DNA of 64,000 bases from Escherichia coli. Its GTDB lineage: Bacteria > Pseudomonadota > Gammaproteobacteria > Enterobacterales > Enterobacteriaceae. The DNA is taken from assembly GCF_024700885.2 (NCBI RefSeq), contig NZ_CP117016.1; one strand, 5' to 3'. Shown here one piece after another: positions 34,368 through 45,420 of this stretch. The notes beneath the pieces were generated by a model that was given only the letters and a program-made list of their open reading frames with translations, had not been told where the DNA came from and searched no databases. The translations under genes were made by a program, and so were the position numbers. Every line of letters starts with the position of its first letter. Positions within the stretch are counted from its first letter, which is position 1.

Positions 34368-37300
34368 ATGAGCGGAAAACCGGCGGCGCGTCAGGGCGAC
34401 ATGACGCAGTATGGCGGTAGCATTGTTCAGGGTTCAGCCGGGGTACGTATTGGTGCCCCCACCGGCGTGGCCTGTTCGGTGTGCCCCGGCGGGGTGACGT
34501 CCGGCCATCCGGTCAATCCGCTGCTCGGTGCGAAGGTCCTTCCCGGCGAAACCGACCTTGCCCTGCCCGGCCCGCTGCCGTTCATCCTCTCCCGCACCTA
34601 CAGCAGTTACCGGACAAAAACGCCCGCGCCGGTGGGGAGCCTCGGCCCCGGCTGGAAAATGCCCGCGGATATCCGCTTACAGCTGCGCGATAACACACTG
34701 ATACTCAGTGATAACGGCGGCAGGAGCCTGTATTTTGAGCACCTGTTTCCCGGTGAGGACGGTTACAGCCGCAGCGAGTCACTCTGGCTGGTGCGCGGCG
34801 GCGTGGCGAAACTGGATGAAGGTCACCGGCTGGCCGCACTCTGGCAGGCACTGCCGGAAGAGCTTCGCCTGAGTCCGCATCGTTATCTGGCGACGAACAG
34901 TCCGCAGGGGCCGTGGTGGGTACTCGGCTGGTGTGAGCAGGTGCCGGAGGCGGATGAGGTGCTGCCCGCGCCGCTGCCGCCGTACCGGGTACTGACCGGG
35001 CTGGTGGACCGCTTCGGGCGCACACAGACGTTTCACCGTGAGGCTGGCGGCGAAATCACCGGCGTGACGGATGGCGCAGGCCGTCACTTCCGGCTGGTAC
35101 TGACCACGCAGGCGCAGCGGGCAGAAGAAGCCCGGCAGCAGGCCATTTCCGGCGGGACGGAACCGTCCGCTTTTCCTGATACCCTGCCGGGTTACACCGA
35201 ATATGGCCGGGACAACGGCATCCGTCTGTCTGCCGTGTGGCTGACACACGACCCGGAATATCCGGACAACCTGCCAGCCGCGCCGCTGGTACGCTATGGC
35301 TGGACGCCGCGTGGCGAACTGGCGGCGGTGTATGACCGCAGCAATACACAGGTGCGCAGCTTTACTTACGATGATAAATACCGGGGCCGGATGGTGGCGC
35401 ACCGTCACACGGGCCGACCGGAAATCCGTTACCGTTACGACAGTGACGGGCGGGTGACAGAACAGCTAAACCCGGCGGGCTTAAGCTACACGTATCAGTA
35501 TGAGAAAGACCGCATCACCATCACCGACAGCCTGGACCGCCGTGAAGTCCTGCACACGCAGGGCGAAGGCGGGCTGAAGCGGGTGGTGAAAAAGGAACAC
35601 GCGGACGGCAGCGTCATGCAGAGTCAGTTTGACGCGGTGGGCAGGCTTAAGGCACAGACGGATGCCGCAGGCCGGACGACTGAGTACAGCCCGGATGTGG
35701 TGACGGGACTCATCACGCGCATCACCACACCGGATGGCAGGGCATCGGCATTTTACTATAACCACCACAACCAGTTAACGTCAGCCACCGGGACTGACGG
35801 GCTGGAGTTGCGCCGGGAATATGATGAATCCGGCCGTCTGATTCAGGAAACCGCACACAACGGCGATATCACCCGCTACCGTTATGATAATCCACACAGT
35901 GACTTACCCTGCGCAACGGAAGATGCCACCGGCAGCCGGAAAACCATGACATGGAGCCGTTACGGTCAGTTGCTGACCGTCACTGACTGTTCCGGTTATG
36001 TAACCCGTTATGACCATGACCGTTTTGGTCAGGTGACGGCGGTGCACCGCGAGGAAGGGCTGAGTCAGTACCGCGCATACGACAGCCGTGGACAGTTAAT
36101 TGCGGTGAAAGACACGCAGGGCCATGAAACGCGGTATGAATACAACGCCGCCGGTGACCTGACCGCCGTCATTGCCCCGGACGGCAGCAGAAACGGGACA
36201 CAGTACGATGCGTGGGGAAAGGCCATCCGTACCACGCAGGGCGGTCTGACGCGCAGTATGGAATACGATGCTGCCGGACGGGTCATCCGCCTGACCAGTG
36301 AAAACGGCAGCCACACCACCTTCCGTTACGATGTACTTGACCGGCTGATACAGGAAACCGGCTTTGACGGCCGCACACAGCGTTATCACCACGACCTGAC
36401 CGGCAAACTTATCCGCAGCGAGGATGAGGGGCTGGTCACCCACTGGCACTATGACGAAGCAGACCGCATCACGCACCGCACCGTGAAGGGTGAACCGGCA
36501 GAGCAGTGGCAGTATGATGAACGCGGCTGGCTGACACAAATCAGCCATCTCAGCGAAGGCCACCGGGTGACGGTGCATTACGGGTATGATGAGAAAGGCC
36601 GCCTGACCGGTGAGCGCCAGACGGTGCATCACCCGCAGACGGAAGCACTGCTCTGGCAGCATGAAACCAGACACGCTTACAACGCGCAGGGACTGGCGAA
36701 CCGCTGTATACCGGACAGCCTGCCCGCCGTGGAATGGCTGACTTACGGCAGCGGCTGGCTGGCAGGCATGAAACTCGGCGACACACCGCTGGTGGAGTAT
36801 ACCCGCGACCGCCTGCACCGGGAAACGCTGCGCAGCTTCGGCCGTTATGAACTCACCACCGCTTATACCTCTGCCGGGCAGTTACAGAGCCAGCACCTGA
36901 ACAGCCTGCAGTATGACCGCGATTACACCTGGAACGACAACGGCGAACTCATCCGCATCAGCAGCCCGCGACAGACCCGGAGTTACAGCTACAGCGACTC
37001 CGGCAGGCTGACCGGCGTCCACACCACCACCTCAAATCTGGATATCCGCATCCCGTATGCCACGGACCCGGCAGGCAACCGCCTGCCCGACCCGGAGCTG
37101 CACCCGGACATCACCCTCAGCATGTGGCCGGATAACCGTATCGCCCGTGACGCGCACTATCTTTACCGGTATGACCGTCACGGCAGACTGACGGAGAAAA
37201 CCGACCTCATCCCGGAAGGGGTTATCCGCACGGACGATGAGCGGACTCACCAGTACCATTACGACAGTCAGCACCGGCTGGTGCACTACACGCGGACACA

Positions 37301-38555
37301 ATATGCAGAGCCGCTGGTCGAAAGTCGCTATCTTTACGACCCGCTGGGCCGCAGGGTGGCAAAACGGGTATGGCGGCGTGAACGGGACCTGACGGGCTGG
37401 ATGTCGCTGTCACGGAAACCGGAAGTGACCTGGTACGGCTGGGACGGCGACCGGCTGACCACGATACAGAACGACAGAACCCGCATCCAGACGGTTTATC
37501 AGCCGGGGAGCTTCACGCCACTCATCAGAGTTGAAACCGCCACCGGTGAGCTGGCGAAAACGCAGCGCCGCAGCCTGGCGGATGCGCTTCAGCAGTCCGG
37601 CGGCGAAGACGGTGGCAGTGTGGTGTTCCCGCCGGTGCTGGTGCAGATGCTCGACCGGCTGGAAAGTGAAATCCTGGCTGACCGGGTGAGTGAGGAAAGC
37701 CGCCGCTGGCTGGCATCGTGCGGCCTGACGGTGGAGCAGATACAAAACCAGATGGACCCGGTGTACACGCCGGCGCGAAAAATCCACCTGTACCACTGCG
37801 ACCATCGCGGCCTGCCGCTGGCGCTTGTCAGCACGGAAGGGGCAACAGAATGGTGCGCAGAATACGATGAATGGGGCAACCTGCTGAATGAAGAGAACCC
37901 GCACCAGCTGCAGCAGCTCATCCGCCTGCCGGGTCAGCAGTATGATGAGGAGTCAGGCCTGTATTACAACCGCCACCGCTATTATGACCCGCTGCAGGGG
38001 CGGTATATCACTCAGGATCCGATTGGGCTGAAGGGGGGATGGAATTTTTATCAGTATCCGTTAAATCCGGTTCAGTATATAGATTCAATGGGACTGGCAT
38101 CTAAATATGGACACTTAAATAATGGCGGATATGGAGCGAGACCCAACAAACCGCCTACGCCCGATCCAAGTAAGTTGCCAGACATAGCGAAACAATTAAG
38201 ACTGCCATATCCTATTGACCAGGCCAGTAGTGCGCCTAATGTTTTCAAAACATTCTTCAGAGCATTAAGTCCTTACGATTACACACTGTATTGCAGGAAG
38301 TGGGTAAAACCCAATCTGACTTGTACGCCGCAGGATGATCCCCAGTATCCAGGGATGGAGACAAAGACAGCAAGTGATTACCTGCCACAGACAACTTGGC
38401 CAACAACTCAATTACCACCAGGATATACTTGTGCAGAACCCTATTTATTCCCAGACATTAATAAACCCGATGGGCCAGCAACAGCAGGGATAGATGATTT
38501 GGGTGAAATTTTAGCTAAAATGAAACAGAGAACATCGAGAGGAATAAGAAAATGA
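34368..38555 (+). CDS. rhsA: Rhs-family polymorphic toxin (RhsA locus) with a divergent C-terminal toxin domain
   Basis: 1395 aa; N-terminal PAAR-like region, long YD-repeat core (…YRYD…, …YDxxGR…), the core-end motif …[31 protein letters not shown]…, then an AT-rich, compositionally distinct C-terminal tip of about 155 aa. Confidence 0.9.
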
Positions 38556-39121
38556 AAAGAGCTTTGTTCTTTTTGCTGATGATATTCGTTAGTTTTGGTG
38601 TTATAGCTAATTGCGAAACACAAGCTAAAGATCAAGATTGCTTTACCATTTTCACTAAGGGTACTATTTTTTCCGCGTTTCCTGTCTTAAATAATAAAAC
38701 CATGTGGAGATGGTATCAGAATGAGGACATAGGTGAGTATTATTGGCAAACAGAGCTTGGTATATGTAAAAATAACAAATTCACACCAAGCGGGGCGAGA
38801 CTCTTAATTCTCGTCGGATCACTACGCCTTAATGAAAATCATGCAACCAAAGGAACGTTGCAGGAGTTGCTAAATACAGCAGAAAAAACGGCGTTTCTCG
38901 GCGATCGGTTTAGAAGTTATATAAGAGCGGGTATCTATCAAAAAAAGAGCAGTGATCCAGCTCAGTTGTTGGCAGTCCTTGATAATTCAATCATGGTTAA
39001 ATATTTTAAAGATGAGAAGCCAACTTATGCTCGAATGACAGCACATCTCCCGAACAAAGATGAGTCTTACGAATGTTTAACAAAAGTACAGCATGAACTG
39101 CTTCGTAGTGAAGAAAAATAA
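38552..39121 (+). CDS. Putative cognate immunity protein of the rhsA C-terminal toxin
   Basis: 189 aa; start overlaps the rhsA stop (ATGA); AT-rich; N-terminal hydrophobic leader ([19 protein letters not shown]) suggests export. Role inferred from position only. Confidence 0.5.
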
Positions 39122-39289
39122 AATCTCTTCCTGAGAAAATAAATTAACTATTCGAAAAAATATGTTCTTAATGGGTATCCAGGAACACCAGAAGGTCGAT
39201 TTGGAAAAATGGATTCCGATGGTAAGAATATCATATATTCTGAATGTAATGTTTTACCCACAACTTTTGAGATTCGATAGGTGTAGAGC

Positions 39290-39637
39290 ATGAGAAACTC
39301 ACTAATATTACTTATTATGATATTGTTTACAATATCACACTCAGTATTTGGAAAAGAAAATTCAGCGGAAATTTTAGTAAATAGTCGTGAAATGGCTTTG
39401 GAATTATCATATGTTTATATTAAATATATATACGGGAAAGAAAAAGCAGAATTTCAGAAACCATATAGTATTACAGATGACAATAATTGTTGGAAAATCG
39501 AGGGAAAACAACCGAAGACGTTAGGAGGAAATTTTACAATACTAATAGCGAAAAAAGATGGGCAAGCGTTGGATGTAATACACAAAATAATCCACTGTTC
39601 AGACGATTCAAATATTTTACCAAGGTGTGTTTCGTAA
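39290..39637 (+). CDS. Small secreted immunity-like protein
   Basis: 115 aa; signal-peptide-like N-terminus; paralogous to the frameshifted ORF at 41240-41507. Confidence 0.45.
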   Translation: MRNSLILLIMILFTISHSVFGKENSAEILVNSREMALELSYVYIKYIYGKEKAEFQKPYSITDDNNCWKIEGKQPKTLGGNFTILIAKKDGQALDVIHKIIHCSDDSNILPRCVS

Positions 39638-39799
39638 CTATTTTGTGTACAATATGACTCTACATATCGACGAAAAAACCACTTGATTTGACAGGAACAC
39701 ATTCAAAAAAATTTCTTTTTCATTTCAGGAGCGATTTTCATCTGTTACTTGAAGTATCTGTGAGATTAAGTGACTCCCCCTAACGTCGTACTAAATAGT

Positions 39800-40100
39800 A
39801 ATTACTGGCCATACCGGGAGCAGTATTCGGCGCTTCCCACATGCAGCAGAATAACCGCATCAGCGAAGATGTATTGTATTTTTACTATCACAATGTGTAC
39901 GGACGGTTTATGGAAAAGAATGAACATTAGATACGCGATGCGGCGGCAGGTTACACGGTTATCACTACGATAGCCAATACTGGCTGGTGCATTACCGCCG
40001 TGAACAATAGGACGCCGTACTGCTGGAAATTTCTTACCTTTATGACTCCCCGCGCCGCCGTATTGGGAAACGGGAAGCAATCAAGATGAGGCTGATATAA
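39800..40100 (+). pseudogene. Degraded Rhs core remnant 1
   Basis: Translates in pieces to …QNNRISEDVLYFYYHNVYGRFMEKNEH*… and …HYDSQYWLVHYRREQ*…YLYDSPRRRIGKREAIK…, alignable to rhsA residues …[26 protein letters not shown]…[13 protein letters not shown]…[13 protein letters not shown]…; in-frame stops. Confidence 0.55.
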
Positions 40101-40297
40101 TGTGCGGAATGCCTGAGTATTTTTAGAATAGGGGGGTAATATGTTTGATAGAATATATCTTGGTGATCGAGCAATAAAAAATTGAATTTGATTTATGGAG
40201 TAAACAAATTAGAATTCAGGTTAATTTAATCTCAAGGATAGCCTATGGTACAACAGAATGGAATTTTTATGATAATGAAGACTTAGAAGATGGTTAT

Positions 40298-40540
40298 TTG
40301 GTATTTTCAGATGTTAGTTTCTTCAATATAACTCCTAATGGCTCTATTCCAGATGATTATATAATTTCAATAATTACAGATAATGTCAATGTTGAATATT
40401 TTGAATCAACTATAGTTGCTGTTGGTCAAATTCGAAACACAAATGTTGGTGACATTGATAATATTGGTGAATGTCAAATTTTCATCAGGTATAAAGACAG
40501 CTGGATTGAGAATAAACTCAAAGAAAAAATAATTGAATAA
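40298..40540 (+). CDS. Hypothetical small protein (TTG start in track)
   Basis: 80-aa ORF in the AT-rich spacer after Rhs remnant 1; no recognisable motif. Confidence 0.25.
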   Translation: MVFSDVSFFNITPNGSIPDDYIISIITDNVNVEYFESTIVAVGQIRNTNVGDIDNIGECQIFIRYKDSWIENKLKEKIIE

Positions 40541-40639
40541 CCATGTTATGTATAGACATTTTAGATGGAACGAACCAGAGGAAGGCATGCCTCCGACTTG
40601 GGTTATATGGGCACGGAGTTTTAGTGTAGTGAACTCAAC

Positions 40640-40710
40640 GACGCAAACCGAATAACCTGCCGCTGGCGCTTATCAGCACGTAAGGGACAACAGCGTAGTA
40701 CGTAGAATAA
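40640..40710 (+). pseudogene. Degraded Rhs core remnant 2
   Basis: cctgccgctggcgcttatcagcacgtaagggacaacag… matches the rhsA core segment cctgccgctggcgcttgtcagcacggaaggggcaacag… at about 37810. Confidence 0.45.
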
Positions 40711-40792
40711 TCCTACCCACGTAGTATGGACACAGGCCTAAGCGAGGTTCTGGTTTTCAAATTTTTCGGGAGTTAGATGATTGGAGGAACAG

Positions 40793-41158
40793 ATGATAAG
40801 AATCGCATTTTTAATAACCAATAAATTTCTTGAGATAGATAGTACCACTCTTGCTGGATATGATTTTAGCGGGATGAATCTACATCGTGCCACCCTCAAT
40901 GGTTATTGTCTTGATGGGGCGAAATTTGAAAAAACTCATTTAAGAAATGTAATGATTCAACATACATCAACTAGAAATGCTGTCTTTCGCAATGCGGCTC
41001 TGATGAATGCTATTCTGAATAACTCAGATTTCACTGGAAGTGATTGTAGTAATTCAAGGTCAATAGGTGAAAATTTTAAAGCAATAGATAATCATGGGAA
41101 AGATATAATAAATGGAAAAGGATTGCCTAATGTTTGCAAAATACATGACAACGTATAA
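40793..41158 (+). CDS. Pentapeptide-repeat protein
   Basis: About 121 aa from MIRIAF (ggagga RBS); tandem pentapeptide-like repeats (…ATLNGYCLDGAKFEKTHLRNVMIQHTSTRNAVFRNAALMNAILNNSDFTGSDCSNS…). Confidence 0.5.
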   Translation: MIRIAFLITNKFLEIDSTTLAGYDFSGMNLHRATLNGYCLDGAKFEKTHLRNVMIQHTSTRNAVFRNAALMNAILNNSDFTGSDCSNSRSIGENFKAIDNHGKDIINGKGLPNVCKIHDNV

Positions 41159-41239
41159 GAAAATATTATTCAGAACCTATGTGATTGTATCTTTATTTTT
41201 ACATACAACACATGGGCGCAGTGTAATAATATTATTATA

Positions 41240-41507
41240 ATGCGCAAGTATGAAAGTGAGGGGAAATACACCGTTAGAAATTTGGTCAAAAATAAAGCTA
41301 TAGCATTGGAATTAGCTGAGATGTATGTTAAAAATCGTTATGGACATGATGCCGAAGAAGAAAAAAAAACCATACAAAATCATGGAATTACCAACAAGTT
41401 GGATTGTTGAAGGCACCATTGAATCAGACCAAATTGCTGGTAGGGTTTTTATTATAGAAATAGGCAAAAATGACGGGAGAATTCTAAATTTTGGCCACGG
41501 AAAATAA
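41240..41507 (+). pseudogene. Frameshifted paralog of the 39290-39637 immunity-like gene
   Basis: Frame 1 from ATG 41240 reads MRKYESEGKYTVRNLVKNKAIALELAEMYVKNRYGHDAEEEKK, then an A9 homopolymer (41361-41369) shifts the frame into the track ORF 41325-41507 (…PYKIMELPTSWIVEGT…GKNDGRILNFGHGK). Removing one A restores an intact reading frame of about 88 codons. Confidence 0.5.
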
Positions 41508-41611
41508 GTATGTAAGGATAAACAAACATCGTGTGTGCTGATGGCAGAGTAGGTGGAGGACTCCAGACAGTCAAACGATAGAAAAAGATAGTCTTTATGG
41601 AGGTTCCTGCA

Positions 41612-42454
41612 ATGTCGAATACATACCAGAAAAGAAAGGCAAGTAAAGAGTATGGTTTATACAATCAATGTAAGAAACTAAATGATGATGAATTATTTCG
41701 CTTACTTGATAATCGCAATTCATTGAAAAGGATTTCATCTGCCAGAGTATTGCAGCTAAGAGGTGGGCAAGACGCTGTTAGATTGGCAATTGAATTCTGC
41801 GCTGACAAAAATTATATCCGTAGAGATATAGGAGCATTTATACTCGGGCAAATAAAAGTTTGCAAAAAATGCGAAGATAGCGTTTTTAATATTTTAAAAA
41901 AGATGGCACTGAATGATAAAAGTGCTTGCGTTCGAGCTACAGCAATCGAGTCAACTGCTCAGCGATGCAAGAAAAACCCAATTTATTCACCTAAAATAGT
42001 AGAACAATCTCAAATTACTGCTTTTGATAAATCGGCTAATGTCAGACGTGCTACGGCATTTGCTATTTCTGTTATCAATGATAAAGAAACAATTCCACTA
42101 TTGATTAATCTGTTAAAAGATCCAAATGGAGATGTCAGAAACTGGGCCGCATTTGCAATAAATATCAATAAATATGATAATAGTGATATTAGGGATTATT
42201 TTGTGGAGATGCTTCAGGATAAAAATGAGGAAGTCCGTATTGAAGCAATAATCGGACTTTCCTACAGAAAAGATAAAAGGGTTTTATCTGTTTTATGCGA
42301 TGAGTTAAAAAAAAATACTGTTTATGATGATATCATTGAAGCTGCGGGTGAATTAGGTGATAAAACGCTACTTCCTGTTTTAGATACTATGTTGTACAAG
42401 TTTGATGACAATGAAATTATAACTTCCGTTATTGATAAGCTGAAGCGTTCATAG
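41612..42454 (+). CDS. yibA: HEAT-repeat protein YibA
   Basis: 280 aa from MSNTYQKRKASKEYGLYNQ…; recognised as the K-12 rhsA-adjacent YibA. Track start is 5 codons upstream. Confidence 0.85.
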   Translation: MSNTYQKRKASKEYGLYNQCKKLNDDELFRLLDNRNSLKRISSARVLQLRGGQDAVRLAIEFCADKNYIRRDIGAFILGQIKVCKKCEDSVFNILKKMALNDKSACVRATAIESTAQRCKKNPIYSPKIVEQSQITAFDKSANVRRATAFAISVINDKETIPLLINLLKDPNGDVRNWAAFAININKYDNSDIRDYFVEMLQDKNEEVRIEAIIGLSYRKDKRVLSVLCDELKKNTVYDDIIEAAGELGDKTLLPVLDTMLYKFDDNEIITSVIDKLKRS

Positions 42455-42495
42455 CGTGAGTTGCCTATGCACAGTGAGGTATTCCCGCCGGCACG

Positions 42496-43305
42496 GTGCA
42501 GATGCTCGACCGGCTGGAAAGTGAAATCCTGGCTGACCGGGTGAGTGAGGAAAGCCGACGCTGGCTGGCATCGTGCGGCCTGACGGTGGCGCAGATGCAA
42601 AACCAGATGGACCCGGTGTACACGCCGGCGCGAAAAATCCACCTGTACCACTGCGACCATCGCGGCCTGCCGCTGGTGCTTATCAGCACGGAAGGGGCAA
42701 CAGAATGGTGCGCAGAATACGATGAGTGGGGCAACCTGCTGAATGAAGAGAACCCGCACCAGCTGCAGGGGCGGTATATCACTCAGGATCCGATTGGACT
42801 GAAGGGGGGATGGAATTTTTATCAGTATCCGTTGAATCCGATAACTGATATTGACCCGTTGGGATTAGCGACCTGTTTATACAGCATAACTTTAGGTATG
42901 CTTTCATGCGTTTCAGATACGCCAAGTGATGATAATTCTTATGGTGTGCTTACTATTTCAGTCGCCTCTGGTAATAATGGTAATAATATGCAATGTAAAA
43001 ATAATCCTGGTTGTACACACTTACAAAATAGAGGCCCAATACCTCCAGGGGTATGGAGCTGGAATGTTAATGGTCCTGGAGCAACTAATAGAAAACCTAA
43101 TGGTATACGTTTAGTACCGTCAGCAAATACAGAAACGTATAATCGTGATGGATTTTTAACACATAGTTGTTTAAACGCTTTTGGTCCATCTTTAGGACCT
43201 CGATTCTGTTCCGAGGGTTGTATAACTGGTTCATCTAATGACATGCAAAAATTAAATGAGCTAATATTTTCAGAGCCAGATAGCACATTAACAGTGACGG
43301 ACTAG
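42496..43305 (+). CDS. yibJ: Orphan Rhs C-terminal fragment with Cys/Gly-rich toxin-like tip
   Basis: 269-aa ORF; its first about 100 aa match the end of the rhsA core (…[16 protein letters not shown]…[18 protein letters not shown]), with a 28-codon deletion spanning [12 protein letters not shown]. Symbol from position. Confidence 0.65.
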
Positions 43306-43309
43306 AAAT

Positions 43310-43705
43310 ATGGCAAGGTTATTAACAATTGTGCTTTTTTTCTCTATTTCTGCGAATGCAGTTACTGTAAACCAATTTCAGAGAGAGTTGGATTTGGCAG
43401 ACAAGGCAATATTATGGGCACTAATATCAGCCAGTACCCAAGAGGGACGAAAAGCGTGTTCACTTAGCTATTTTTCATGTAAAGCCGCAGAGGCTGAACT
43501 CGGACTGGCATATATGGCTGCTAATGATAACAAGGCATTTCTCACATCCTTATCTAGAATAATGATGTACAAAATAGATGCTGGACTTTCCGAATCCTAT
43601 ACATGCTATTTATTAAGCAAGGGAAAGATCATAAGACCATATCTGAAGAATCTAAATCCACACCAACTTGTCGCTGATTGCATTGAAACTGTAAATAAAA
43701 GATAA
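43310..43705 (+). CDS. yibG: Small secreted protein, putative immunity partner of the yibJ fragment
   Basis: 131 aa; signal-peptide-like N-terminus (MARLLTIVLFFSISANA); 4 bp after yibJ. Symbol assigned by position only. Confidence 0.4.
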   Translation: MARLLTIVLFFSISANAVTVNQFQRELDLADKAILWALISASTQEGRKACSLSYFSCKAAEAELGLAYMAANDNKAFLTSLSRIMMYKIDAGLSESYTCYLLSKGKIIRPYLKNLNPHQLVADCIETVNKR

Positions 43706-44283
43706 AAATAAAAAAATCATTGATATAGATTCAGTTAATATTTGCAATGATAATAAAAATATAAATTGGAGAGTTAATAGTACTATTGTAGCCATTGATG
43801 ATTCTATAAAATGCATCGATGAATAATAACTTAATTATATTTAAAAATATATTAATGACTCACTCTCCAGGAGTTTTTTAACTTAGTGTTATAATGAATA
43901 CGATAATTAAAAGTGAAGAGAAAAATAGTTGTATACATATATTACATGAACCTACATTGTGATCTATAAATTAAATATTTTTAAATGTGACTGTCATCCT
44001 TCAGATAATAAAGCCATCATCGCAATAGATGGAAAAGCACTCCTGCTCTTTTTTGATTAGAGCCGTGGCAGAGGAACAACTCATATCATCATTGCGATCT
44101 CGACAATGTATGGTCTGATCCTTCGGCAGATCAAGACGGATAAAAAATCCAATGAGTTCACACTCATCCCGAACTTCTTAACATAATGGATATTAACGAA
44201 AAATCATCGCAGCCAATGAAGTAATATGCAAAAATAATTAGTCCTTACAGGGAGCAAAGTTCCATAATCTCCCCCTTCCCTAC

Positions 44284-45420
44284 TCAATGATCCAAATAAA
44301 GATAATGCATCCAACTGGTCATTCTCAGCAGCACCTTCCGCATCACCGAAACATGGCTGAAATGGTCGGAGTAAACTGCCACCTGGGCGTAGATGCCGTC
44401 GGGTAAGGCATCGATATCAGCGTTAGGGTCCAGTTCAATGGTTCCCAGCACACCGTCCGTGCCGGGCACGACCGTTAATGATTGCAATACCCCCTGCGCC
44501 TGATAAGAACCGCCTGGCACGACAGGTAAAATACTGGTCAGTTTGCCGTGGAACACCTGCCCAGGTAGCGCGTTAAACACCACTTCCGCATCATCGCCGG
44601 GTTTCAGACGTAACAGCGAGTTTTGCCGAAATTGGGCGACAATTTGCCGTTTTTGCTCGGGGATGAAAACCATCACCGGACGCAACGGCAAGGCAGCTGC
44701 GTATGTACCTGGGCGGATCAGTACCTGAGTAACGTAGCCATTGCTCGGCGCGCGAATGACAGTCTGCTCAAGGTTATATTTTGCTTCAGTAAGTTGCGCT
44801 CTTAAGCTCACAATCTGCGATTGCTCGCCGTTAACCATACTATCGAGCTGGCTCTGGATCTGCGCCTGCTCCGCCACCGAGCCTTTCACCAGCGCATCCT
44901 GCGCGAGGAAATTTTGCCGCGCATCGTCGATGTCACGTTCCGAGAACGGATTCACCGCCGCCTGGCTGCCTTTCAGATAACGTTGATAATTATTAAACAG
45001 ACGGTCGCGCTCCGCTGAAACCTGGGTGGTGTTGGCCTGCGCTTCAGTGAGCTGCGCGCGCAGCGTCTTTATATTATGCGTCGCCGTCATCAGGTCAGCC
45101 TGAAGTCTGTCAACTCGCGCCTGGTAACGAACCGGGTCGAGCTTAAAAAGCACCTCGCCCTTTTGAATAAGCTGATTATTCTTGTCAGTGACTTCAGTAA
45201 CAATTCCCGTCACCTGTGGCGTGATGGGGATCGCAATCACTGCCTTTTGCGCGGTAAAAGTGTAAGGGTGGTTGTAGTTCATCAACAAAATCAAACCACT
45301 CACCAGAAACACGCCTCCCAGCGCCGCCGTCGCCAGCGTCCACTGATTTACCGGAATGCGGAAGATTTTAAAGACCGCCCACGCCAGCGCCACGTAAGTT
45401 AAAACAATCAATAGATCCAT
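44284..45420 (-). CDS. yibH: HlyD-family membrane fusion protein
   Basis: 378 aa; N-terminal TM segment, coiled-coil region, biotinyl/lipoyl-like hairpin. Confidence 0.88.

Follow-up and report, generated by a model that had tools for sequence, protein, structure and literature searches.

Probable decay of two Imm-NTF2-2 immunity genes in an Escherichia coli rhsA array, and a late nine-adenine run

A small gene that is split by a frameshift in a homopolymer may be phase-variable, a recent pseudogene or a sequencing artefact. Such a gene lies in the window analysed here, a 64-kb stretch of DNA that identity across 50 kb assigns to E. coli MLI114, at its rhsA locus. An earlier note on this DNA had named all three options for the gene, and had pointed to a related gene upstream of it. 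We asked what the two genes are and which option applies. It is very probable, in our judgement, that both are orphan immunity genes left by the replacement of Rhs toxin tips, that the second was dead before its run of nine adenines (A9) arose, and that neither a switch nor an assembly error is involved. The Rhs context of the locus, and the toxin stubs beside both genes, had been missed in the earlier note. The features are as follows.

34368..38555, + strand: main Rhs toxin gene, an ORF of 1395 aa (RefSeq 'RHS element core protein')
38552..39121, + strand: YbfC-like gene, an ORF of 189 aa with an N-terminal signal peptide
39143..39280, + strand: Tox-JAB-2 (DUF4329) Rhs toxin stub, made up of the final 45 codons, INYSKKYVLNGYPGTPEGRFGKMDSDGKNIIYSECNVLPTTFEIR, and the stop
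39290..39637, + strand: copy 1, an orphan Imm-NTF2-2 immunity gene (PF15631) of 115 aa with an intact signal peptide
39841..40073, + strand: frameshifted Rhs core relic, found by tblastn with the main Rhs protein as two pieces in different frames (E 2.4e-10)
40181..40540, + strand: DUF6258 gene (RefSeq annotation; Pfam PF19772, 5e-18)
40656-40709, + strand: Rhs core-end relic (blastn against K-12 rhsB, 54 nt at 89%)
about 40706-40771, + strand: fragment of ~62-66 nt matching IS3-annotated sequence of other genomes
40781..41071, + strand: truncated pentapeptide-repeat ORF, with weak NCBIfam pentapeptide matches below cut-offs
41072..41158, + strand: stub of an RhsB-type Tox-JAB-2 (DUF4329) toxin, the last 28 codons, NFKAIDNHGKDIINGKGLPNVCKIHDNV, and the stop
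41130..41507, + strand: copy 2, a yhhH pseudogene (RefSeq 'NTF2 fold immunity protein, frameshifted'), aligned with K-12 and other alleles
41240..41410, + strand: first half-ORF of copy 2, starting at the internal Met40 codon of yhhH
41361..41369, + strand: the A9 run, a derived homopolymer with a +1 insertion and one of two A9 runs in the window
41612..42454, + strand: yibA, an intact HEAT-repeat protein gene (RefSeq, NCBIfam)
42473-42873, + strand: frameshifted Rhs core-end fragment (RefSeq; Pfam RHS; tblastn)
42898-43305, + strand: Tlde1 toxin tip (RefSeq; Pfam Tlde1_dom)
43310-43826, + strand: frameshifted Imm57 gene (RefSeq; Pfam Imm57)

The product of copy 1 (39290-39637, 115 aa) and that of copy 2 with its frame repaired (88 aa) share 38% identity over 72 aa (BLASTP E 2e-13), which bears out the resemblance that the earlier note saw between the products of 39290-39637 and 41240-41507. 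Each independently matches Pfam PF15631, Imm-NTF2-2, known as the YbbC/YhhH family in NCBI naming: copy 1 at 1.1e-17 over model positions 1-67 of 68, and repaired copy 2 at 1.1e-21 over positions 1-68 of 68. No NCBIfam model matches either copy. Because the BLASTP score and the two PF15631 matches put this likeness far beyond chance, the copies are, judged by their sequences, paralogues, and the earlier suggestion that they encode immunity proteins agrees with their family. In Zhang et al. 2012 (PMC3482391), Tox-JAB-2 (DUF4329) has Imm-NTF2-2 for its immunity partner, and the conserved residues are listed as 'Y, W'. Y48 and W68 (copy 1 numbering) are present in both copies, invariant in one alignment and at least 90% conserved in another, of 91 sequences. 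A hydrophobic N-terminus was found in 83 of 93 full-length family representatives (89%). We took an in-frame export signal as a family criterion of our own, outside the published definition; copy 1 has one and copy 2 does not.

The Imm-NTF2-2 products are predicted to fold as a small alpha+beta roll of the cystatin, PepSY or NTF2-like kind. The AF2 model of copy 1 has a pLDDT of 87.7 overall and of 54-66 within its tail, and a sequence search with YhhH at E <= 1 returned no homologue of solved structure. A word-indexed protein search with copy 1 found close E. coli relatives only, the wider family being visible only through a profile search of representatives. The literature on YhhH, YbbC and DUF4329 yielded computational mentions, plus one Tn-seq paper, and no functional test of the pair; the Tn-seq paper remarks on H-NS/StpA binding over ybbC. 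Since the family is mostly exported and the predicted fold resembles cystatin and PepSY-type inhibitors, Tox-JAB-2 toxins may have their site of action in the periplasm and not be nucleases of the cytoplasm, an implication that is possibly worth more than the locus itself.

Both copies sit among the remains of other Rhs modules. Rhs loci swap their toxic tip by recombination, and the former tip, together with its immunity gene, is displaced downstream, where the toxin is deleted and the remainder decays. The main Rhs toxin has a YD-repeat core, with NCBIfam RHS_core and Rhs_assc_core matches reaching the DPxGL motif, and a 152-aa C-terminal tip for which a Pfam search gave no recognised family. 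The start of the YbfC-like gene (38552) overlaps the Rhs stop, so this gene is presumed, purely from its position, to be the cognate immunity gene of the main tip; it has no family match in Pfam or NCBIfam, and corresponds to 'protein YbfC' at the rhsC locus of O157 and E. coli B. The array that follows lies downstream of this full-length rhs gene and is co-oriented with it, contains Rhs core-end pieces lacking their N-termini (39841-40073, 40656-40709 and 42473-42873), and has a G+C content of 28-50% across 38300-44300 against about 60% in the Rhs core. Within it the DUF6258 gene, which no NCBIfam model matches, is probably another orphan immunity gene, going by context only. The truncated pentapeptide-repeat ORF, where RefSeq has partial pseudogenes, is fused in frame to the toxin stub next downstream, and the Rhs fragment, Tlde1 tip and Imm57 gene at 42473..43826 are a further orphan module. 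Promoter-like sites did not exceed chance (12 found, 13.3 expected) and no terminators were found, which makes these scans uninformative.

Each copy follows a Tox-JAB-2 stub, of 45 and 28 codons, and it is on this ground that we regard both as orphan immunity genes. For copy 1, homology to an intact Rhs-DUF4329 gene of another E. coli locus (L013) begins at 39143, the stub having 91% DNA identity with the 3' end of that gene; the tail motif of the stub also aligns with the K-12 RhsB tip. An 84%-identical, 100-aa homologue of copy 1 lies 9 nt after the intact Rhs-DUF4329 gene in L013 and in L014, and an intact DUF4329 toxin is likewise paired with Imm-NTF2-2 in two metagenome contigs (L018, L019). 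For copy 2, homology with the K-12 rhsB-yhhH region begins only at 41072, so that 87 nt of toxin are left; the K-12 RhsB tip is itself DUF4329 (Pfam, 2e-38). Both copies thus adjoin a stub homologous to the 3' end of an intact DUF4329 gene, and with the same spacing.

The earlier note described damage in the second gene only. Copy 1 has its signal peptide and its domain intact, but it is not pristine. In alignment, a 2-nt deletion is seen at 39579/39580, four codons ahead of the original stop; through it the ancestral end (THTK and stop) gives way to a tail of 19 aa, IHKIIHCSDDSNILPRCVS, and the protein gains 15 aa. In O157:H7 the same orphan is interrupted by a nonsense codon (position 29), and in E. 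coli B its ATG has become ACG. Copy 1 is the better preserved of the two, yet appears to be drifting too, since different lineages carry different lesions.

Copy 2 differs from intact yhhH by four lesions. Two are deletions, one of 4 nt at 41191/41192, by which the signal peptide loses its frame, and one of 3 nt, in frame, at 41236/41237. The other two are the G-to-A substitution (position 41364) from which the homopolymer arose, and one additional A that makes it A9. The 4-nt deletion leaves codons 1-21 out of frame, and for this reason copy 2 is a pseudogene of the Imm-NTF2-2 family and not a working member. The earlier note allowed a signal peptide to the first copy alone; this needs amending, as copy 2 keeps the coding remnant of one, out of frame, at 41130-41191. 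The leader ORF so shifted ends in a stop that overlaps the ATG at 41240 (TAATG), and this ATG lacks a Shine-Dalgarno sequence. With A9, the ORF that it opens ends at 41410 and the remainder lies in the +1 frame to 41507; with A8 (or A11) a single ORF of 88 aa results, which confirms that the gene is split within A9 at 41361-41369. The −4 and +1 changes sum to −3, so the signal-peptide and C-terminal frames coincide in the A9 form, but compensation between them was rejected because a stop lies between the two at 41238-41240. We also rejected programmed frameshifting or an RNA element: reading through A9 would take a +1 shift, nothing backs one, and a scan of 38500-44300 gave zero Rfam matches.

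The order of these lesions can be read from other genomes. The site exists in the population as A5, (GAA)4, (GAA)5, A8 and A9, and the intact yhhH of ~2,700 genomes has A5 only. Bounded by GATGCCG and CCATAC, the interval is CAGAAGAAGAAAAA in K-12 and 15.TR.026 and AAGAAGAAGAAAAA in two strains, and it holds one extra GAA in PCN033. A8 was found in 22 genomes and A9 in two (MLI114 and E700025), together ~24 of 5,426; four of the 22 A8 genomes were read base by base, all four being A8, and the others were assigned by identical alignment signatures. A 111-nt probe spanning both deletions matched at 95% or more in 271 genomes and at ~84% in 2,655 K-12-like genomes, and all 271 genomes with the copy 2 allele have the same −4/−3 configuration. 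Among the 5,426 genomes, six weak or partial matches at 90-95% being set aside, no undeleted allele of the window type turned up whose signal peptide was intact. RefSeq calls the copy 2 allele frameshifted in nine of nine records inspected, including six without A9 (A8 and A5 forms). The shared deletions precede A9, and of the options first named, 'recent pseudogene' was the right one. The dN/dS between the copy 2 allele and K-12 yhhH is 0.28, on which basis the allele would have diverged while functional and died recently; the deleted clade itself contains just 2 synonymous and 3 non-synonymous changes.

Could the run nevertheless act as a switch, with slipped-strand mispairing turning an immunity gene on at A8 and off at A9 within a population? 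Runs of 8-9 adenines are prone to slippage, and tract length does differ among close relatives: strains 1190 and E700025 are identical across 6.3 kb except in the A-run, with MLI114 one further SNP away, so that A8 (22 genomes) and A9 (two) coexist among strains that are near-identical over this distance. The A8 ORF spans the entire Imm-NTF2-2 domain, and the TAATG overlap could permit termination-reinitiation at ATG 41240. Against this, the tract arose by the G-to-A change in a small clade, passing from A5 to A8 to A9, and strains do not share it as a conserved part of the gene, the functional gene having A5 only. No tract length yields a complete protein: the supposed 'on' allele, A8, still lacks its signal peptide through the 4-nt deletion, in a family that is predominantly exported, is called frameshifted by RefSeq, and none of the 271 genomes has an intact 'on' form. 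There is no Shine-Dalgarno sequence, promoter-like sites occur at chance frequency, copy 2 no longer has its cognate toxin gene, and the modules around it have decayed as well. The window's other A9 run, in frame in yibA at 42307-42315, has a lone −1 change in strain 19KM1831, which resembles plain mutation or error and not a designed switch. We find phase variation very hard to credit here. Instability at the site, in the A8/A9 change and in GAA copy number, is real, with no functional consequence visible. Alleles without A9 may still be translated at a low level into a protein lacking the signal. A related proposal is that, in the A5 and A8 strains, the 88-aa form does work as an immunity protein, in the cytoplasm and with no signal peptide, A9 being its first truly inactivating mutation. 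That the ORF covers the whole domain, the dN/dS of 0.28 against K-12, and the possible coupling of translation through the TAATG overlap speak for it. The dN/dS, however, mostly reflects divergence older than the deletion, given how few changes the deleted clade contains, 89% of family representatives are exported, no ribosome-binding site is present, and the cysteine-rich RhsB tip together with exported immunity proteins reads as action outside the cytoplasm. This proposal, too, is highly unlikely.

The remaining alternative is that an error of sequencing or assembly produced the ninth A and that the true state is A8, as in the relatives. The long reads were Nanopore R9.4.1, which is prone to homopolymer miscalls (PMC10198576), A8 outnumbers A9 by 22 to two among related genomes, and the lone −1 of 19KM1831 in the other A9 run is an error-like difference. 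But polishing of the MLI114 assembly employed medaka first and Polypolish with Illumina MiSeq reads second (PMC10198576), and E700025, from Pakistan and an unrelated project, has an identical A9. All frameshifted genes in 50 kb sit inside rhs debris, no housekeeping gene being broken, and the window's other A9 and A8 runs agree with other genomes. An artefact, which the earlier note had also offered, is accordingly unlikely. The least credible of the ideas considered is that the 88-aa ORF is translated through TAATG reinitiation, as a cytoplasmic or moonlighting immunity protein, with A8/A9 as an accidental on/off switch worked by replication or RNA-polymerase slippage; if true, this would be a contingency locus caught at birth in E. 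coli.

The preferred reading, decay of orphan immunity genes, has four steps for copy 2. Its toxin was lost nearly entirely, as the stub shows. One TTTG unit then disappeared from the signal-peptide region, so that export was uncoupled from the domain, after which the G-to-A change merged AAGAAAAA into A8. A8 finally gained one A in MLI114 and in one other genome, a change seen in both and probably due to replication slippage. Because the earlier lesions had already inactivated copy 2, A9 is a late and selectively irrelevant mutation in a dead gene. RefSeq already lists copy 2 among pseudogenes, as an NTF2-fold immunity gene with a frameshift, and earlier work has described both the family and Rhs orphan arrays. 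By itself the locus matters little. It is a clean worked example of the stepwise decay of displaced toxin-immunity modules, in which a point mutation creates a homopolymer that then slips, and its lesson is that a frameshift in an A-run alone is no evidence of phase variation.

The array resembles the orphan rhs/cdi modules of polymorphic toxin systems (Zhang et al. 2012, PMC3482391): it is co-oriented and lies 3' of a full-length rhs gene, it is made up of core-end fragments, tips and immunity genes, and it shares their low G+C (30-40% against 60% in the core) and their mosaicism between loci. It differs from them in being unusually eroded, with two toxins present only as stubs and with frameshifts in the immunity genes copy 2 and Imm57 as well as in two of the Rhs fragments. 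Measured against the E. coli pairs of Rhs-DUF4329 and a 100-aa Imm-NTF2-2 protein, copy 1 and its stub have 91% DNA identity and share the 9-nt spacer and the signal peptide, whereas the toxin in the window is deleted except for its last 45 codons and the C-terminus of copy 1 is altered and extended by the 2-nt deletion. Copy 2 belongs to the same gene lineage as K-12 YhhH (b3483, the gene after rhsB), with ~90% DNA identity across the gene, the 29-nt overlap with the toxin end and the downstream junction to yibA-like sequence in common. Unlike YhhH, it lies at the rhsA and not the rhsB locus, retains only 87 nt of its toxin partner, and carries the 4-nt and 3-nt deletions, ten amino-acid changes, the derived A-run and the +1 insertion. 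Homopolymer-driven phase-variable (contingency) genes have been described in Neisseria, Haemophilus and Campylobacter, and what copy 2 shares with them is a coding mononucleotide run that differs by one among close strains. In copy 2, however, the run arose recently, as a side effect of a point mutation, and is not conserved, no allele encodes a complete protein, and the toxin partner is gone.

The two small proteins paired in the earlier note, the 115-aa product of copy 1 (39290-39637) and the 88-aa product of copy 2 once its frame is repaired, are indeed related, sharing 38% identity over 72 residues (E 2e-13). Both match Pfam PF15631, the immunity family Imm-NTF2-2 (1.1e-17 for copy 1 and 1.1e-21 for repaired copy 2). 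The break in copy 2 is also as described: at the run of nine adenines (A9, 41361-41369) the ORF from ATG 41240 loses its frame and stops at 41410, with the remainder in the +1 frame to 41507, while eight adenines (A8) give a single 88-aa ORF. In RefSeq, 41130-41507 is already entered as a pseudogene, an NTF2-fold immunity gene with a frameshift.

Both copies are placed in the rhsA locus, flanked by yibF and yibH/mtlA, and 50 kb of the chromosome of E. coli MLI114 (NZ_CP117013.1; human stool, Mali) is identical to the window. The ~6 kb 3' of the Rhs gene have a G+C content of 28-50%, versus ~60% in the Rhs core, and appear in RefSeq as a series of small genes and pseudogenes, which also includes a DUF6258 gene, yibA, and a Tlde1 tip with a frameshifted Imm57 gene.

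Features of the rhsA locus
34368-38555, full-length Rhs gene, upstream of the low-G+C stretch
39290-39637, copy 1, Imm-NTF2-2 gene
39841-40073, Rhs core relic
40656-40709, Rhs core relic (core end)
41130-41507, copy 2, yhhH pseudogene
42473-42873, Rhs core relic

We next considered the toxin partners. Imm-NTF2-2 was defined as the immunity partner of the Tox-JAB-2 (DUF4329) toxins at Rhs tips (Zhang et al. 2012, PMC3482391). By descent, copy 2 is a yhhH gene (~90% DNA identity to yhhH). In K-12, and in ~2,700 of 5,426 complete E. coli genomes searched, yhhH lies 3' of rhsB, whose K-12 product has a DUF4329 tip (Pfam, 2e-38). In the window, rhsB-yhhH homology starts only at 41072, so that the toxin remainder is its last 28 codons, joined in frame to a truncated pentapeptide-repeat ORF. 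A homologue of copy 1 (100 aa, 84% identical) is found 9 nt 3' of an intact Rhs-DUF4329 gene in other E. coli assemblies (L013 and L014). Because this module matches the window (91% DNA identity) only from 39143 on, just the last 45 toxin codons are kept here (39143-39280). The motif of this stub, YxGTPxGxFxxxDxxGK, also aligns to the RhsB tail, and recurs in two metagenome contigs in which an Rhs toxin with a DUF4329-like tip has a 4-nt overlap with an Imm-NTF2-2 gene. Given the toxin stubs beside them, both copies are orphan immunity genes, within a displaced-module array of the kind typical of Rhs loci.

The first description of Imm-NTF2-2 confined it to E. coli, but the family is not restricted to that species, with 1,163 representatives (50% identity level) at E <= 1e-3. 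Since 83 of 93 full-length representatives have a hydrophobic N-terminus, the export signal probably matters for the family; a loose lipobox pattern (cysteine) is present in 27 of the 93. The predicted fold of copy 1 is nearest to cystatin and PepSY inhibitor folds. With immunity proteins exported and toxin tips rich in cysteine, a periplasmic site of action seems likelier for Tox-JAB-2 toxins than the role of cytoplasmic nuclease predicted in 2012.

Alignment to intact yhhH revealed four lesions in copy 2.

Lesions of copy 2 relative to intact yhhH
41191/41192, one TTTG unit lost, within the signal-peptide region
41236/41237, 3-nt in-frame deletion
41364, G-to-A substitution
41361-41369, one extra A in the A9 run

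Because of the 4-nt deletion, codons 1-21 (41130-41191) are no longer read in the frame of the domain. Thus, the earlier statement that only the first copy has a signal peptide needs correcting: copy 2 has the codons for one, out of frame. ATG 41240 is the internal Met40 codon of yhhH, and no Shine-Dalgarno sequence precedes it. A 111-nt probe across both deletions matched 271 genomes at >=95%, which therefore share the deleted form; in 2,655 genomes it matched at ~84%, these having an intact gene of the K-12 kind. All deleted alleles inspected, A9-free ones included, are called frameshifted by RefSeq. With a dN/dS of 0.28 between the window allele and K-12 yhhH, copy 2 diverged while constrained and was inactivated recently. 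A9 is the last of several lesions in this orphan immunity gene, and probably arose by slippage.

To follow the run itself, we compared the sequence between GATGCCG and CCATAC among alleles.

Allele states of the A-run
A5, intact gene: CAGAAGAAGAAAAA; K-12-like alleles and the 97.9%-identity deleted allele (15.TR.026 inspected)
A5, C-to-A variant reading as four GAA codons: AAGAAGAAGAAAAA; alignment signature in 7 genomes, two of them inspected
GAA unit added in frame (+3 nt): AAGAAGAAGAAGAAAAA; four genomes including PCN033
A8: AAGAAGAAAAAAAA; 22-genome class, seen in all 4 genomes inspected (UK dog, Japanese patient, US chicken, US lake)
A9: AAGAAGAAAAAAAAA; MLI114 and E700025 (Pakistan) only

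From these states, the homopolymer arose recently as the by-product of a single base change in a GAA-rich stretch, and the rare A9 derives from it by +1. Across the surrounding 6.3 kb, the run is the sole difference between E700025 (A9) and strain 1190 (A8), and MLI114 has one SNP more (38811) relative to both. The extra GAA unit of four genomes, PCN033 among them, corresponds to window 41355-41369; the site is therefore slippage-prone in triplets as well as single bases.

The earlier note had left three readings open, of which the recent pseudogene stands. That the ninth A is a sequencing or assembly artefact is very unlikely: for MLI114, a Trycycler assembly of Nanopore reads was polished with medaka, then with Polypolish and Illumina MiSeq reads (PMC10198576); the same A9 occurs in the independent genome E700025; and all pseudogenes in the surrounding 50 kb lie within rhs debris, with zero housekeeping genes frameshifted. 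Even if the true run were A8, copy 2 is a pseudogene. Phase variation through the run would fit its length polymorphism among relatives, but is otherwise not supported, as the tract is not conserved, no allele of the lineage encodes a complete exported protein, the toxin partner is lost, and promoter-like sites are no commoner than chance.

The -4 and +1 shifts sum to -3, but the ORF is not restored, since translation would meet a stop between them (41238-41240). This stop ends a frameshifted 36-aa leader ORF (41130-41240) and overlaps the internal ATG as TAATG (41237-41242), an arrangement that can couple translation and is here probably coincidental. Through this overlap, reinitiation could yield a signal-less 88-aa protein in A9-free strains, which is unlikely to be functional. 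A second A9 run (42307-42315) lies in frame inside intact yibA; strain 19KM1831 has A8 there, and its yibA is flagged as frameshifted by RefSeq. Both A9 runs of this AT-rich region thus differ by one base in some assembly.

Copy 1 is also altered: 2 nt are deleted at 39579/39580, so that a 19-aa tail (IHKIIHCSDDSNILPRCVS) stands in place of the ancestral ...THTK* end. The AlphaFold model has low confidence (pLDDT 54-66) over residues 101-115, which make up most of this tail. In 15.TR.026 the orphan shares this deletion near the 3' end; in O157:H7 (L011 7001-7560) its codon 29 has become the stop TAA, and in E. coli B (L012 7001-7560) a change of ATG to ACG removes its start. That separate lineages have acquired lesions independently argues for relaxed selection on this orphan. 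As its signal peptide and domain are intact in this strain, copy 1 may retain residual protective function.

Pfam and NCBIfam gave no family for either the main Rhs protein's 152-aa tip or the following YbfC-like 189-aa protein, which has a signal peptide (38097-39121 region), and we read the two as a putative uncharacterised toxin-immunity pair. The block from Rhs tip through ybfC and copy 1 to the DUF6258 gene occupies rhsA in the window. In 15.TR.026 its site is rhsB (nikR to yhhJ), and both O157:H7 and E. coli B have it at rhsC (ybfA to ybgA); in its rhsA and rhsB settings it extends via the yhhH pseudogene to yibA (window 38097-42454). Judged from these arrangements, modules have evidently moved about between Rhs loci. 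Between the core-end relic and the truncated pentapeptide-repeat ORF is an IS3-like fragment of ~62-66 nt (~40706-40771), probably a rearrangement scar; in well over a thousand E. coli genomes, the sequence it matches carries IS3-family transposase annotation. The pentapeptide-repeat sequence and last 28 Tox-JAB-2 codons form an unbroken 125-aa chimeric ORF (40781-41158), treated by RefSeq as two partial pseudogenes. A frameshift breaks the Imm57 gene (43310-43826) 3' of the orphan Tlde1 (L,D-transpeptidase-like) tip, both in the window and in all related genomes inspected.

Altogether, the A9 observation holds but is an ordinary one, a late mutation, probably by slippage, in an orphan immunity gene inactivated earlier, and the YbbC/YhhH (Imm-NTF2-2) family, its Tox-JAB-2 pairing and Rhs orphan arrays are already described.
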